34,080 nucleotides of DNA, from the IMG/VR virus record IMGVR_UViG_648276671_000020, positions 1-34,080 of that record; one strand, given 5' to 3'. Below the pieces are notes generated by a model. The model did no database searches. It worked only from the letters and a program-made list of their open reading frames with translations, and had not been told where the DNA came from. The position numbers were made by a program, and so were the translations under genes. The DNA comes from a virus (lineage: Duplodnaviria; Heunggongvirae; Uroviricota; Caudoviricetes). Below are positions 17,665 to 25,918 of this stretch, in pieces (within the stretch, counting starts at the first letter, position 1; each line of letters opens with the position of its first letter).

Positions 17665-17730
17665 TTGTGCCATTCCCGACACCTCATCGTTACATTGCCG
17701 CCGGTATGACCCGGCGGCATCCTTCCCGTT

Positions 17731-18365
17731 ATGAACACTCTCGCAAATATCCAGGAACTCGCGCGCGCACTGCGCAACATGATCCGCACCGGCCTTGTCG
17801 TCGAAACCAACCTTAAAGCCGGTCGCTGCCGTGTGCAGACCGGCGGCATGTGCACCGACTGGCTTCAGTGGCTGACCTGTCGTGCCGGGCGTTCGCGCAC
17901 ATGGTGGGCACCTTCCGTGGGGGAGCAGGTGCTGATTCTGGCGTGGGCGGTGAACTTGACACGGCGTTTGTTCTGCCGGGGATTTATTCCGGCGATAACC
18001 CCGCGCCGTCTGCGTCGGCGGATGCCCTGCATATCCGTTTCCCTGACGGGGCGGTGATTGAGTATGAACCCGAAACCAGTGCACTCACGGTAAGCGGAAT
18101 TAAAACGGCCAGCGTGACGGCTTCTGATTCTGTTACTGCCACGGTGCCGGTGGTCATGGTGAAAGCATCAACCCGCGTCACCCTGGACACACCGGAGGTG
18201 GTCTGCACCAACAGGCTGATTACCGGCACGCTGGAAGTGCAGAAGGGCGGGACGATGCGCGGCAACATTGAACACACCGGCGGTGAACTCTCATCAAACG
18301 GTAAGGTACTGCATACCCATAAACACCCCGGCGACAGCGGCGGCACAACCGGGAGCCCTCTATGA
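17731..18365 (+). pseudogene. V: Baseplate spike protein V, disrupted by a 1-nt frameshift
   Basis: Track ORF 17731..18057 carries the N-terminal 71 residues and ORF 17850..18365 carries the C-terminal 140 residues in a different frame. They join at about 17943 (CTGGCG-TGGGCGG). The sum is 211 aa, the size of P2 gpV. Confidence 0.7.
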
Positions 18366-18709
18366 CAGCGCGTTATCTCGGAATGAATCGCAGTGATGGC
18401 CTGACTGTCACTGACCTTGAGCATATCAGCCAGAGTATAGGCGATATCCTGCGCACACCTGTCGGCTCACGGGTGATGCGTCGTGATTACGGCTCGTTGC
18501 TGGCGTCAATGATTGACCAGCCGCAGACTCCGGCGCTTGAGTTGCAGATTAAGGTCGCCTGTTACATGGCAGTGCTGAAATGGGAACCCCGCGTCACCCT
18601 GTCATCCGTCACCACTGAGCGCAGTTTTGACGGGCGAATGACGGTCACGTTAACCGGCCAGCACAACGACACCGGCCAGCCACTTTCGTTAACCATCCCT
18701 GTGAGTTGA
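18362..18709 (+). CDS. W: Baseplate protein W (gp25-like)
   Basis: 115 aa, ATG overlaps the V stop. Confidence 0.85.
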   Translation: MTARYLGMNRSDGLTVTDLEHISQSIGDILRTPVGSRVMRRDYGSLLASMIDQPQTPALELQIKVACYMAVLKWEPRVTLSSVTTERSFDGRMTVTLTGQHNDTGQPLSLTIPVS

Positions 18710-18713
18710 AACC

Positions 18714-19622
18714 ATGCCGATTATCGACCTGAACCAGCTACCCGCACCGGATGTGGTCGAGGAGCTGGACTTTGAAACCATTCTCGCCGAACGCAAGGCG
18801 ACACTGATTTCCCTTTACCCGGAAGACCAGCAGGAGGCGGTCGCCCGTACCCTGACGCTGGAATCCGAGCCTCTCGTCAAACTGCTGGAGGAAAATGCTT
18901 ATCGTGAGCTTATCTGGCGTCAGCGTGTGAATGAGGCCGCACGGGCGGTGATGCTGGCCTGTGCCGCCGGTAATGACCTTGATGTGATTGGTGCCAATTA
19001 CAACACCACGCGCCTGACTATCACCCCGGCAGATGATTCGACCCTCCCGCCGACACCGGCAGTGATGGAATCTGACACCGATTATCGTCTGCGTATTCAG
19101 CAGGCGTTTGAAGGTTTAAGCGTCGCCGGGTCGGTGGGTGCCTATCAGTATCATGGTCGCAGTGCTGACGGGCGTGTCGCGGATATCTCTGTCACCAGTC
19201 CGTCTCCGGCCTGCGTCACCATCTCTGTGCTGTCACGTGAGAATAACGGTGTCGCATCCGAAGACCTGCTGGCGGTGGTGCGTAACGCCCTGAATGGCGA
19301 GGACGTCAGGCCGGTGGCCGACCGCGTGACCGTGCAGTCTGCCGCCATCGTTGAATACCAGATAAACGCCACGCTTTACCTTTACCCTGGTCCCGAAAGC
19401 GAACCCATACGCGCTGCCGCCGTGAAAAAACTGGAAGCGTACATCACGGCACAGCACCGGCTGGGGCGCGACATCCGTCTGTCTGCCATTTATGCCGCTT
19501 TGCATGTGGAGGGCGTGCAGCGTGTCGAGCTGGCGGCACCACTGGCCGACATCGTGCTCAACAGTACGCAGGCGTCTTTCTGTACCGAATACTGCGTCGT
19601 GACCGGAGGCTCGGATGAGTGA
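18714..19622 (+). CDS. J: Baseplate protein J
   Basis: 302 aa, the size and position of P2 gpJ. Confidence 0.85.
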   Translation: MPIIDLNQLPAPDVVEELDFETILAERKATLISLYPEDQQEAVARTLTLESEPLVKLLEENAYRELIWRQRVNEAARAVMLACAAGNDLDVIGANYNTTRLTITPADDSTLPPTPAVMESDTDYRLRIQQAFEGLSVAGSVGAYQYHGRSADGRVADISVTSPSPACVTISVLSRENNGVASEDLLAVVRNALNGEDVRPVADRVTVQSAAIVEYQINATLYLYPGPESEPIRAAAVKKLEAYITAQHRLGRDIRLSAIYAALHVEGVQRVELAAPLADIVLNSTQASFCTEYCVVTGGSDE

Positions 19623-20145
19623 TTCGCGACTGCTGCCGACCGGCTCATCACCGCTTGAAGTCGCCGCCGCAAAAGCCTGTGCGGAAATTGAAAAAACGCC
19701 GGTCAGTATTCGTGAGCAGTGGAACCCGGATACCTGTCCGGCAAATCTGCTTCCGTGGCTGGCGTGGGCGTTTTCGGTCGACAGGTGGGATGAAAAGTGG
19801 CCGGAAGCGACCAAACGCGCCGTTATTCGCGATGCCTATTTCATCCACTGTCATAAAGGCACTATAGGTGCAATCCGGCGTGTGGTGGAGCCGCTGGGCT
19901 ATCTCATCAACGTGACGGAGTGGTGGGAAACCAGTGACCCGCCGGGCACCTTCCGGCTTGATATTGGTGTACTGGAAAGCGGCATCACAGAGGCAATGTA
20001 TCAGGAAATGGAACGGCTGATTGCTGATGCCAAACCTGCAAGCCGCCACCTTATTGGCCTGAACATTACCCGGGACATTCCCGGCTACCTGTTCGCCGGT
20101 AGTGTGGCTTATGACGGCGATGTAATTACGGTTTACCCCGGATAA
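19615..20145 (+). CDS. I: Baseplate protein I
   Basis: 176 aa, the size and position of P2 gpI. Confidence 0.85.
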   Translation: MSDSRLLPTGSSPLEVAAAKACAEIEKTPVSIREQWNPDTCPANLLPWLAWAFSVDRWDEKWPEATKRAVIRDAYFIHCHKGTIGAIRRVVEPLGYLINVTEWWETSDPPGTFRLDIGVLESGITEAMYQEMERLIADAKPASRHLIGLNITRDIPGYLFAGSVAYDGDVITVYPG

Positions 20146-20155
20146 GTGAGGAATA

Positions 20156-22366
20156 ATGAGCACAAAATTCAGAACCGTTATCACCACTGCCGGTGCAGCA
20201 AAGCTGGCAGCGGCAACCGCACCGGGAGGGCGGAAGGTCAACATTACCACGATGGCCGTCGGGGATGGCGGGGGTAAATTGCCTGTCCCGGATGCCGGAC
20301 AGACCGGGCTTATCCATGAAGTCTGGCGACATGCGCTGAACAAAATCAGCCAGGACAAACGAAACAGTAATTATATTATCGCAGAGCTGGTTATTCCGCC
20401 GGAGGTGGGCGGTTTCTGGATGCGTGAGCTTGGCCTGTACGATGATGCGGGAACGTTAATTGCCGTGGCGAACATGGCCGAAAGTTATAAGCCTGCCCTT
20501 GCCGAAGGCTCAGGGCGTTCGCAGACCTGCCGCATGGTCATCATCGTCAGCAGTGTGGCCTCAGTGGAGCTGACTATCGACACCACAACGGTGATGGCAA
20601 CGCAGGATTACGTTGATGACAAGATTGCAGAGCATGAACAGTCACGACGTCACCCGGACGCCTCGCTGACCGCAAAAGGTTTTACTCAGTTAAGCAGTGC
20701 GACCAACAGTACGTCTGAAACGCTCGCCGCAACGCCGAAAGCGGTAAAGGCCGCATATGACCTTGCTAACGGGAAATATACTGCGCAGGATGCCACTACG
20801 GCGCGAAAAGGCCTTGTTCAGCTCAGTAGCGCCACCAACAGCGATTCTGAAACGCTTGCGGCAACGCCAAAGGCGGTAAAGGCCGCATATGACCTTGCTA
20901 ACGGGAAATACACTGCACAGGACGCCACCACCGCGCGAAAAGGCCTTGTTCAGCTCAGTAGCGCCACCAACAGCGACTCTGAAACGCTTGCGGCAACACC
21001 AAAGGCGGTTAAGACAGCGTATGACCTTGCTAACGGGAAATACACTGCACAGGATGCCACCACAGCGCGAAAAGGTCTTGTCCAGCTAAGTAGTGCCATC
21101 AACAGCGATTCTGAAACGCTGGCCGCAACACCAAAAGCGGTGAAGTCTGCCTATGACAACGCTGAAAAACGTCTTCAGAAAGATCAGAACGGTGCGGATA
21201 TTCCGGGAAAGGATACCTTCACGAAAAATATCGGTGCCTGTCGTGCTTATAGCGGTGCTTTGAGCACTGAAGCCGGAAACTGGACAACCGCGCAGTTTAT
21301 TGACTGGCTAGAGTCTCAGGGAGCCTTTAATCATCCCTACTGGATGTGCAAGTGTTCCTGGTCATACGGTAATAACAAAATTATTACCGATACTGACTGT
21401 GGGACGATTCATCTTGCAGGTTGCGTGATTGAGGTTATGGGCGTTAAAGCAGCAATGACCATTCGTGTGACCACTCCGAGTACATCAAGCAGTGGTGGTA
21501 CCACCAGTGCGCAATTCACGTATATCAATCACGGAGCTGATTATGCGCCGGGCTGGCGACGCGACTACAATACGAAAAATAAGCAACCGGCTTTTGCATT
21601 AGGGAAAACAGGAAATACGGTTGCAAATAATAAAGCAGTAGGATGGAACTGGGACAGTGGTGCTTATTGTGCACAGGATGGCGGAGCATCAAAAATGGTG
21701 CTGCATTTTTACACGGGTGAGGGAAGTTGTCCGGCAATGCAGTTTCTTGTGGATTATAAAAACAGGGGGATTTTTTACAGGTCGGCACGTGATGGGTATG
21801 GATTTGAGGCTGACTGGTCAGAGTTTTATACCACATCACGAAAGCCAACACCTGCGGATATTCTTGCTCTGGCATTATCAGGCGGAAGCATGTCAGGCAG
21901 CATAAAATTTATCAATGATGCCTTCCTGATTTGGGAAAGAAACACTGACTGGGCGAAAATTGGATTTAAAAATGATTCAGATGCTGATTCTGACTCATTC
22001 ATGTGGTTTGAAACTGGTGATAATGGCAATGAATATTTTAAATGGCGCATCAGGTCTGGCAGCACAACAAAAGATCTGATGACGCTTAAGTCTGATGCAC
22101 TACGAGTTACCGGGCAGGTGATACCATCAAATTTCAGCAATTTTGACTCCCGCTATGTCAGGGATCTCCGGCTTGGTGGTGCCGCCACATACAAACCTGC
22201 GAACAATGGCATGACATGGACACATCAGGCACCGTCCGGGTGTGTATATACCGGCATTATTGTTCAGGATACCGGCTCAAACTCTGCCGATAACATTGGT
22301 GGCGTATATTACAGACCGGTGCAGAAATACATTAACGGGACATGGTACAACGTGGCGCAGGTATAA
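20156..22366 (+). CDS. H: Tail fiber protein
   Basis: 736 aa. N-terminal region conserved P2-H-like, internal 44-aa tandem repeats, AT-richer C-terminal domain (CGTIHLAGC..., Trp/Tyr-rich). Confidence 0.9.
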   Translation: MSTKFRTVITTAGAAKLAAATAPGGRKVNITTMAVGDGGGKLPVPDAGQTGLIHEVWRHALNKISQDKRNSNYIIAELVIPPEVGGFWMRELGLYDDAGTLIAVANMAESYKPALAEGSGRSQTCRMVIIVSSVASVELTIDTTTVMATQDYVDDKIAEHEQSRRHPDASLTAKGFTQLSSATNSTSETLAATPKAVKAAYDLANGKYTAQDATTARKGLVQLSSATNSDSETLAATPKAVKAAYDLANGKYTAQDATTARKGLVQLSSATNSDSETLAATPKAVKTAYDLANGKYTAQDATTARKGLVQLSSAINSDSETLAATPKAVKSAYDNAEKRLQKDQNGADIPGKDTFTKNIGACRAYSGALSTEAGNWTTAQFIDWLESQGAFNHPYWMCKCSWSYGNNKIITDTDCGTIHLAGCVIEVMGVKAAMTIRVTTPSTSSSGGTTSAQFTYINHGADYAPGWRRDYNTKNKQPAFALGKTGNTVANNKAVGWNWDSGAYCAQDGGASKMVLHFYTGEGSCPAMQFLVDYKNRGIFYRSARDGYGFEADWSEFYTTSRKPTPADILALALSGGSMSGSIKFINDAFLIWERNTDWAKIGFKNDSDADSDSFMWFETGDNGNEYFKWRIRSGSTTKDLMTLKSDALRVTGQVIPSNFSNFDSRYVRDLRLGGAATYKPANNGMTWTHQAPSGCVYTGIIVQDTGSNSADNIGGVYYRPVQKYINGTWYNVAQV
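20676..21165 (+). repeat. Tandem 132-bp in-frame coding repeats (about 3.7 copies) within H
   Basis: The unit ARKGLVQLSSATNSDSETLAATPKAVKAAYDLANGKYTAQDATT is repeated with few substitutions; unit boundaries at about 20804, 20936 and 21068. Confidence 0.85.
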
Positions 22367-22973: not shown

Positions 22974-23272
22974 AGATCGGACCTTAGGCTTCAGTAATTT
23001 GGTTAGCACAACCCCTTTGATAAACATACAGCTACAGTATTGCTTTTATAAGGAGCGTAGTTTCAATAGGACACCCCAAACGTTAGTCGGGAAAAGCCGA
23101 CTGAAAAAAAACTTGTGTGGACAAGTAGTGTCCATTTAATGCCATTTTTAGATTAAAATGTGCCATTTTGAGGGTATTCTTAAACGTGCATAACGTTCTG
23201 ATTTATCATACACAGAGCCTTATCATTTGAAACCATTCCGATGTACATCAAACAATGATTACAAGAGAAATT

Positions 23273-24790
23273 ATGACACCGCCAACCAAAATTGATACAT
23301 CAAGTCTACTTACCATATTGGGCGTTATTGCTGCTGTATGGGCCCTTATTACGCCAAACGCTCGACTACGTTTAAGGTTCTGCCTAGCGTGGTGGGATTG
23401 GGTAATTGTTGGGTTTGCATTCTTACTAAGCAATTATTTGGTGTTTGCACCGGCTTTAAAATCACTAGACTTATATTTTAGCTTTGGCCCCTGGAAATGG
23501 GGATTAGATAGTTCAAGTGCCGTATACCTGATATCACTCGCAGTTGCTATTTACATTTTATTTCGCTTAAAAAACCCTAAACTCTCAATTGGAAGAACAG
23601 GGATATTTCTAGAGTTAGTGGAAAATTTGCACCTTACTAAACGATACGACGATCTGGCACAATTGTTGGCACCTCAACTAGAAAAATTAATATCAATAAT
23701 TGATAGACCTGTGAAGAATCGACTTTGTGATAAGATAGCTAACAATCTCCGCATCTCTAATCGCGAGACAGCTGCTGAACATGCACATGAAGCATTGTTA
23801 AATATTGTCTCATCACCTGAACTTACCAATCACTTTGCACTTGCGCACCCATCCCTCTGCCTTGAGTTAATCAAGATCGAGCCAATAGTTCGTTCTGACT
23901 TTACTTCTAATTTTATCAGTGCATTACTTGGTTCACCTAACAGTCGTCTATATGTTGAGCTTAAAAATAATCTTAACGTTAGTCGAGGACATCGTTTATT
24001 GATTCCAAAAAACAACCGTATATTACATTTTTTCTTTTCCAATGCTAAGTTTGCAGCTGATTTAGCAATATACCGTGATATCGGTGACTATCTCTACTGG
24101 AGGTTAGATGAAGATGAAAAAATTATTGCTGCACTTAATAAGTCTTTAGGTTCCTATTACGATGCTTCAAAATATAAATGTCCTATTTACTCAGGTGTCA
24201 CGCTGTTTGAAATTATGGTTCATGAAGGTATTCACCAGGGTCTTCAGGATCATTTATGGTTGCATTACTATTCATATTTTGCAAGGAAAATTATAAAGAA
24301 TATGAATAGGCAATCGGATGAATATAGTGGTGAATGGGAAACACCTTTTCACTTCCTTCTCTGTCATTTATTTAGCGTCGCTACAGATTGGGCAGAACAA
24401 TGCGAATGGATAGATGAAAAGGAGATTCCTCAAGAAAATAAAGAAATAGATAATTTCGATCTTCATTATATTTCAAAAGAGGCTACCAAATTACTTGGTG
24501 CTATGCTGCAGTTGGTTATGCCTAATAAAAAACTCACCTTGAAATCTAAAAAACATATTCTTGATATAGTTGTATCTTGTTATATTAGATTGAAAAGGAA
24601 TAAAAAATTAAAAGACGTCGCTGACTCATTATTAATTTTCACCACTAGAGGCGAAGGTAATTCAGCACCGCCGCATTATCGTAGAGAACTTCTAGAAATA
24701 TTCAATACCCTTGATGATTATCGATTAAGAACTGATGCCCCGGAATTCCGAGCAGCTATAGAGTCTGCTATTCAAGCAAGGCCGAATTAG
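23273..24790 (+). CDS. Membrane-anchored protein, function unknown (3 N-terminal TM helices plus large soluble domain)
   Basis: Track ORF 23255..24790; ATG at 23273 is an alternative start. Hydrophobic segments near residues 15-33, 43-66 and 85-103, then about 400 aa I cannot place in any family. AT-rich; sits at the P2 Z/fun cargo locus. Confidence 0.65.
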   Translation: MTPPTKIDTSSLLTILGVIAAVWALITPNARLRLRFCLAWWDWVIVGFAFLLSNYLVFAPALKSLDLYFSFGPWKWGLDSSSAVYLISLAVAIYILFRLKNPKLSIGRTGIFLELVENLHLTKRYDDLAQLLAPQLEKLISIIDRPVKNRLCDKIANNLRISNRETAAEHAHEALLNIVSSPELTNHFALAHPSLCLELIKIEPIVRSDFTSNFISALLGSPNSRLYVELKNNLNVSRGHRLLIPKNNRILHFFFSNAKFAADLAIYRDIGDYLYWRLDEDEKIIAALNKSLGSYYDASKYKCPIYSGVTLFEIMVHEGIHQGLQDHLWLHYYSYFARKIIKNMNRQSDEYSGEWETPFHFLLCHLFSVATDWAEQCEWIDEKEIPQENKEIDNFDLHYISKEATKLLGAMLQLVMPNKKLTLKSKKHILDIVVSCYIRLKRNKKLKDVADSLLIFTTRGEGNSAPPHYRRELLEIFNTLDDYRLRTDAPEFRAAIESAIQARPN

Positions 24791-25064
24791 GTAAATCAAC
24801 CACCTGCATAGCGGGTGGTTTAGACATAGACCTCTAAGCATGCCTGAAAGCAGAGGTACCTCTAAGTTTCGATGTCTAGGTGTTGATCGGCTGTAATCTG
24901 GTAACCAGGTCAAGCTTAAAATTTTCTCAACATAAACAAGTAGTATTTCAAATATTGAACCATACTGACTCCCCCACTTTTTATAAGATTATGGAAATTT
25001 TTTGTACCAGTAAGTTCGAAAATTAGTGTTGTTCTCATCAGTCGTTATGAATAATTTTGAACTT

Positions 25065-25128
25065 CCGCTCCTCGCTCACAGCGGACCCTCAACTCAGCCA
25101 GCAATGTCCGCTGCTTGCCAGGAGCGGA
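25065..25128. other. Nested stem-loop between convergent cargo genes
   Basis: Outer arms TCCGCTCC/GGAGCGGA and inner arms CAGCGGAC/GTCCGCTG, each 8 bp, separated by 7-nt internal loops with a 20-nt apical loop. GC-rich inside an AT-rich island. Confidence 0.4.
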
Positions 25129-25165
25129 CGTAGTTTAATCTCTACTATGTTAATAAGTAATGATA

Positions 25166-25918
25166 TTAAATAAACTCATCATCAAGAAAGCCTGTTGATA
25201 AAAAGTTCTGAATGTGAAGATAAAAAGAATAACGTGTATCTTCATTTTTTTTCTTCGATGTGTTGAGTTCCGGCTTGAGATTGTAAATAAGATGAGACTC
25301 TATAAAGTCAAGTAATTCTATAGCTAATGATGTCGGACTAATCCAATCCAGTGAAATATAGTCTTTTCCATCATAAAACCATGGGGTGGCTCTATATATC
25401 CTCTTTTTCATATTATTATATTTGGGATCTAGCAACTTTAAGGCAGCCGAGTGACCGCCAATAAACCTTTTGGAGTTAACGGTTTTTCCGACATAAACAA
25501 TGTGTTCATTGGTATCATCCATATCAGAGCATGATATTAAATAGATTGGTAATGAGGGTTTGGGAGGAATGCCGATTTTTTTTTCGATTATCACCCTCTC
25601 CTTTTCATGAATAAAAATGGGAAGCTTTCCATTAAATTCACTCTTCACATTCCCCAAGAATGAATCTGTATTTTTCCTAGCTTCATGCAGTCCGACCCAG
25701 TTAAGACTATTGACCTGATGGAGAGGACAGCATTCCTGTATTGATAACCAAGCCTCCCAATCACTTGATGGATTATCACTACAGTTTTGGCCCGAAAATC
25801 TGTGTGAAAGGAATTTTCTCCCCTCGAACCAGGCTTGCAACGGAATATATATATCTGAAGTGTTCTGCTCGACTTCAATTAATGGACTATTAGTATCCAA
25901 ATTTATGCCTCCTTTCAT
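25166..25918 (-). CDS. Hypothetical protein with a C-terminal GIY-YIG-like nuclease motif
   Basis: 250 aa. PIYLISCSDMDDTNEHIVYVGKTVNSKRF resembles the GIY-X(10-15)-YVGK..KR core of GIY-YIG domains (compare UvrC VIYVGKAKDLKKR as I recall it). GGAGG-type RBS before the ATG; AT-rich. Confidence 0.55.
   Translation of the reverse strand: MKGGINLDTNSPLIEVEQNTSDIYIPLQAWFEGRKFLSHRFSGQNCSDNPSSDWEAWLSIQECCPLHQVNSLNWVGLHEARKNTDSFLGNVKSEFNGKLPIFIHEKERVIIEKKIGIPPKPSLPIYLISCSDMDDTNEHIVYVGKTVNSKRFIGGHSAALKLLDPKYNNMKKRIYRATPWFYDGKDYISLDWISPTSLAIELLDFIESHLIYNLKPELNTSKKKNEDTRYSFYLHIQNFLSTGFLDDEFI

Follow-up and report, generated by a model that had tools for sequence, protein, structure and literature searches.

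Phage P2 encodes its baseplate central spike, gpV, in a gene that is located between S and W in the V-W-J-I-H-G operon and whose product is made up of three Pfam domains. P2 V amber mutants need suppressor hosts for growth (PMC12407873), and V is therefore an essential gene. In the same tail gene cluster, the E/E' tail chaperone gene of P2 is read in two frames; slippage takes place at a conserved T TTT TTG site, and every relative shares the split. P2-like phages also have a described cargo hotspot between gpA and gpQ (PMC9122126). Loss of a morphogenesis gene through a single-base deletion has a counterpart in E. coli ETEC1748 (NZ_CP122719), which carries a P2-like prophage inserted at cpxP-fieF whose portal gene is a RefSeq pseudogene.

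The window analysed in this work (the whole 34,080-nucleotide stretch of DNA) harbours a P2-like (Peduovirus) prophage that sits between cpxP and fieF. Its gene V shares with P2 the position between S and W and, once the frame is repaired, the three Pfam domains, but one C was lost at codon 71/72, so that a full-length product is no longer encoded. In the P2 reference, orf30 lies between S and V, whereas the window, like Yersinia phage HQ103, lacks it. The programmed site of E/E' is present in the window as it is in P2; by contrast, V has no slip site and is single-frame in its relatives. The portal gene Q of the window has the same A5 allele as ETEC1748, but ETEC1748 has also lost several kilobases, from the holin to the tape-measure gene, while the prophage of the window is otherwise complete, indicating a much earlier stage of decay.

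Gene V is split between two overlapping reading frames

The features of gene V are the following:

17731..18365, + strand: gene V (baseplate central spike, gpV) with a 1-nt deletion; the intact gene has 636 nt and encodes 211 aa (HQ103/M45 alignment)
17942..17943, + strand: deletion site at codon 71/72, where CC loses one C and CTGGCCGTGG becomes CTGGCGTGG (alignment; every intact relative has CC)
17731..18057, + strand: ORF of the N-terminal fragment, 108 aa (71 native plus 37 out-of-frame residues), followed by TGA
17943..18365, + strand: native C-terminal 140 codons (remainder of the OB domain, spike beta-helix and apex motif) in the -1 frame, which is open from 17850

The N-terminal ORF is followed by an overlapping second ORF (17850..18365, 171 aa), which ends with 140 native residues, gpV 72-211. 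The two frames overlap across 17850..18057; with respect to the V start, the second is the -1 frame. In tblastn searches, P2 gpV residues 72-211 matched 17943..18362 with 97.9% identity, in a frame that differs from that of residues 1-71. Alignment of the window gene with V of Yersinia phage HQ103 (NC_070908) and E. coli M45 (CP080119) revealed one gap and no other difference over 636 columns. The gap aside, V of the window matches the V genes of many E. coli prophages and of HQ103, a viable phage, with 100% identity. All of the relatives examined encode V in a single frame of 211 aa (213 aa in one case); the window has no uninterrupted ORF of approximately 211 aa, V being split into the 108-aa and 171-aa ORFs.

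The missing base is a C (intact genes read CTGGCCGTGGG / CTGGCCGTGGGCGG, the window CTGGCGTGGGCGG). The deletion site is a two-base run, and it is hence untypical as a homopolymer. The initial annotation had described V as split by a single-nucleotide frameshift at approximately 17943, with pieces of 71 and 140 residues in separate frames that add up to the 211 aa of P2 gpV. The ORFs, the tblastn matches and the alignment with intact V confirmed the frameshift, and tblastn confirmed the two pieces and their total. The base itself had been given as a G, and here the alignment with intact P2-like V corrects the annotation, since it is one C of a CC pair that is lost. The reconstruction with a G (CTGGCGGTGGGCGG) encodes the identical protein (GCG and GCC both encode Ala71) and is present in no relative.

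The protein obtained after repair of the frame aligned end-to-end with P2 gpV (PDB 3QR8) over all 211 residues, with approximately 96% identity, and PDB 3QR7 and 3AQJ aligned to its residues 86/97-211. The repaired protein contains the domains PF04717 (OB, residues 19-86), PF18715 (Phage_spike) and PF18946 (Apex). The frame is broken at residue 71/72, within the OB domain: the repaired protein covers 75 of the 75 positions of the PF04717 profile (E = 8e-20), whereas the N-terminal fragment, as encoded, covers only positions 1-61 of the 75. The C-terminal beta-helix spike was detected in the -1 frame fragment (PF18715, E = 3e-29). The Apex match reached 17.2 bits, under the cut-off of 20.8, and the intact homologue was likewise under the cut-off. 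Judged from sequence comparison, the gene is homologous to gpV, but its OB domain is predicted to be truncated as encoded.

Distribution of the deletion allele

Gene V was present in 1,583 of the 5,426 complete E. coli genomes, and the best matches differed from the window by the gap alone. An 80-mer spanning the deletion had no 100% match in these 5,426 genomes, and the deletion allele was also absent from the GTDB representative genomes, IMG/VR and the JGI metagenomes. Seven prophage assemblies of the same type, whose tail-fibre H protein or cargo protein is identical, harboured an intact V in DNA approximately 98-99% identical to the window. V was intact in 20 further P2-like loci as well; about 30 sister loci were intact overall. 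Compared to the sister loci examined, the 5.1 kb around V (15786..20883) are free of private substitutions in the window. Look-ups of the 108-aa and 171-aa fragment products gave no match, and only a 154-aa product did. Presence of the allele in one strain and absence of local private substitutions indicate that the V lesion arose very recently or is an artefact. The ratio of private SNPs to private indels across the whole window was dropped from the analysis, as the 78 'private' SNPs were clustered mosaic segments, not new mutations, and the local count around V alone was retained.

The deletion in run-level assemblies

Over 22,211 nt, the window matches scaffold GL884380.1 of the draft assembly GCA_000176655.2 with 100% identity, which identifies this assembly as its source. 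The Logan per-run assemblies of SRR024231, SRR024214 and SRR024238 showed 0 mismatches to the scaffold and all carried a rare Orf80 variant, indicating that the three SRA runs come from the same strain. These runs are probably the assembly's own input; consequently, they provide support from re-assembled read subsets at contig level, not from independent resequencing. Exactly two contigs on record contain the 154-aa product (starting at ATG 17901): Logan SRR024214_961 and SRR024231_608. This product requires the deletion, and both contigs therefore carry it. Both span the site unbroken, read CTGGCGTGGG and have 0 mismatches to the window. SRR024214_961 also has a run-specific A6 to A5 error at 17397, which was corrected in the final assembly. 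Run-specific errors such as this one did not recur between runs and were fixed in the consensus.

Discrepancies between five run-level contigs and the final assembly, counted by run length, were the following (total for runs of at least five bases, 9 of 97):

two-base runs: 0 discrepancies in 3,271
five-base runs: 3 discrepancies in 67
six-base runs: 6 discrepancies in 30

Over 9 kb, contig SRR024231_621 differed from the source scaffold by 8 one-base deletions, all of them located in A/T runs of 5-6 bases, and by no substitution. This error profile points to raw data that are homopolymer-error-prone and to a pyrosequencing-like platform. An artefact of this kind would be expected in a run of at least five identical bases and would not be reproducible between runs; the V site shows neither property.

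Other frameshifts and homopolymer variants in the scaffold

A second 1-nt deletion was found in the portal gene Q:

9475..9522, - strand: 5' end of Q, with an A-tract of A5 at codons 4-5 instead of the A6 of relatives (T-run 9509-9513 on the + strand)

It generates a 15-codon ORF that ends in a TGA overlapping the Met16 ATG, and a 329-aa ORF remains. The 329-aa Met16 portal product was recorded in at least 24 contigs (37 collection blocks). Ten of the 329-aa contigs were examined; they belong to differing assemblies and cargo contexts and present five A-tract combinations (A5/A5CA, A6/A6, A6/A8, A7/A8 and A5/A6). The portal of another locus (L067) has the intact A6/A7 haplotype. The varied A-tract lengths across unrelated assemblies indicate that the portal Q site is a recurrent hotspot of slippage or miscalls. 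Given the A6 to A5 bias of the platform, the change in the window may well be a miscall, with a probability no lower than that of a real mutation. The N-terminal residues of the P2 portal are removed on maturation, and a Met16 start might be tolerated if such removal applies.

In the host flank, the core gene rhaT has an A7 to A6 frameshift (approximately position 1415 of the source scaffold, about 6.1 kb left of the window). This allele was present in 9 of 5,424 complete E. coli genomes and is probably a residual homopolymer miscall. It is the one coding frameshift in approximately 15 kb of host flank, which is suggestive of the assembly quality but too little sequence to decide. The initial annotation had proposed a homopolymer sequencing error as one explanation for V. 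This is disfavoured, as the site is a CC pair and run-level miscalls were observed only at runs of at least five bases; homopolymer error fits the portal A6 to A5 and the rhaT A7 to A6 changes better than V.

Three further candidate signs of assembly quality were discarded. An intergenic A5 to A4 change is a natural variant present in 105 genomes, and a T5 to T4 change at 2438-2442 is common to sister prophages. The lack of sodA and int in the source gene table was uninformative, both genes being free of indels. In both copies of the att core (33054-33099 of the window and 7354-7399 of the source scaffold) the run is T7, against T8 in nearly all of the relatives that were compared; the difference may reflect natural variation, or the two copies may share one homopolymer under-call. 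The sister locus L009 has T7 rather than T8 at 25245, inside the gene of a 250-aa cargo protein.

Gene content of the prophage

All of the 36 P2 proteins from int to ogr were present and collinear in the window (tblastn), 34 of them full length in one frame. The exceptions were V (split) and Q (frameshifted at its extreme 5' end). Leaving this end of Q aside, each of the 35 proteins other than gpV gave one full-length match uninterrupted by stops. Full-length genes include those for lysis, replication, integration and the other tail genes, and the DNA of the morphogenesis genes is 96-98% identical to P2 and HQ103. The prophage thus presents the P2 gene order, the full gene set and the att repeats, of which the right copy is in the window:

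33054..33099, + strand: attR core, 46-bp exact repeat of attL, which is located 117-162 nt left of window position 1

Window 1-1753 encodes an integrase, a C repressor and a Cox protein that are only 43-52% identical to their P2 counterparts, indicating that the immunity and integration module differs from that of P2. The E/E' programmed -1 site (GGTTTTTTG) is located at approximately 28366-28400 (slip at about 28380), and the 20 bases around the slip match P2 exactly. The tail fibre H has 736 aa, compared to 669 aa in P2, and contains an internal duplication of approximately 130 nt (20806-21015 and 20938-21145 both match P2 13252-13461).

Cargo was found at two loci. The gpA-gpQ hotspot (5775-8092) begins with a 1.1-kb AT-rich stretch (5775-6909) that has no ORF longer than 81 aa. 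It is followed by an M78 peptidase/capP-like gene (6910-7395; PADLOC capP, 3e-28) and by a gene for a 209-aa protein (7463-8092) with no Pfam or PADLOC match. The second locus (23255-25918) is located between G and FI, the position of Z/fun in P2, and encodes proteins of 511 aa (+ strand) and 250 aa (- strand), neither of which matched Pfam or PADLOC. Scanning the window against Rfam returned nothing.

Discussion

The deletion of one C in V could be a property of the strain or of its sequence. If the strain truly has CC and an intact V, the missing C would be a systematic under-call carried into the consensus. The 8 one-base deletions without substitutions in the SRR024231 per-run assembly are compatible with this, as are the portal A6 to A5 change (1 of 1,546 complete genomes) and the rhaT frameshift in the same scaffold, which show that the assembly contains errors, the absence of the V allele from every other genome and the lack of private substitutions in the surrounding 5.1-kb block. 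However, the V site belongs to the two-base class, in which no discrepancy was found, errors being restricted to runs of at least five bases; ordinary run-specific errors, such as that at 17397, were non-recurrent and were removed in the consensus; and the deletion is the sole allele assembled from two separate runs, in contigs continuous through the site. The assembly of only the CC to C allele from two runs, set against this error profile, favours a real deletion. We consider an under-call unlikely, and the presence of the deletion in the sequenced DNA highly probable. A real deletion might still leave gpV function intact if the full-length protein were made by -1 ribosomal frameshifting or transcriptional slippage, or if the fragments complemented each other. 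The downstream frame is indeed -1 and overlaps the first frame over 17850..18057, and the window does hold a genuine programmed -1 site, that of E/E'. Nevertheless, V has no X XXY YYZ slippery heptamer in 17731..18057 and no A/T run of five or more bases, and an SD-like motif precedes none of its in-frame restart codons; recoding or restart is therefore very unlikely. V is, moreover, single-frame in all relatives, and the break cuts one OB-fold domain in two. Production of functional gpV from the split gene is hardly credible, and the split is a lesion, not a recoding signal.

The history of the lesion was also considered. The initial annotation had suggested a prophage defective for tail assembly and had linked this to a domesticated prophage kept for its cargo. 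A tail-assembly defect is favoured by the deletion in two run assemblies, the break inside the OB-fold of an essential gene and the lack of a rescue signal. Domestication found no such support. An old immobilised element kept for its cargo, with the V frameshift as part of that history, would be in keeping with cargo at both known P2 hotspots (the M78 peptidase/capP-like and 209-aa genes at A-Q, the 511-aa and 250-aa genes at G-FI). But the other P2 genes checked are full length, apart from the 5' end of Q, the 46-bp att repeats are intact, V is otherwise base-for-base the same as that of a viable phage with no private substitution around it, and the allele is limited to one strain. The truly decayed relative ETEC1748 differs in its multi-kb deletion. 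Long-term domestication is thus highly improbable. The frameshift might instead be adaptive, the 108-aa OB-fold fragment or an internally initiated spike fragment acting as a putative dominant-negative poison of baseplate assembly. If true, a defective tail gene would thereby have become a means of defence against P2-like phages that superinfect the cell or against P4-type satellites. The allele, however, is present in one isolate only and the C-terminal fragment has no expression signal, and this possibility is extremely remote.

A genuine and recent C deletion that inactivates V of an otherwise complete P2-like prophage is, as a whole, very likely the best explanation of these results. In this scenario, the loss of a single C at codon 71/72 would be a strain-private and very recent event. 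Translation from the V start would give 71 native and 37 out-of-frame residues before the stop, truncating the OB-fold through which the spike sits on the baseplate hub, and the beta-helical spike and the apex would be left untranslated. The prophage would be expected to retain lysogeny, replication, head making and cell lysis, while functional tails, and with them infectious particles, would not be assembled. Baseplate and tail assembly should fail, gpV being essential. We infer that tail assembly was lost by neutral decay rather than through a selected mutation. V is probably an ordinary strain-private frameshift pseudogene of an essential tail gene, a case known in kind, and the frameshift most likely represents an ordinary early step of prophage decay.

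From a practical point of view, the public Logan per-run re-assemblies can substitute for raw-read inspection. Here they allowed a lesion that is probably real, at the V CC pair, to be told apart from probable homopolymer miscalls in the portal and rhaT A-tracts of the same scaffold. For annotation, V becomes a frameshifted pseudogene and the prophage is predicted to be tail-defective, with little significance beyond that. The strain is predicted to be unlikely to release infectious P2-like particles or to provide tails to a P4-type satellite.
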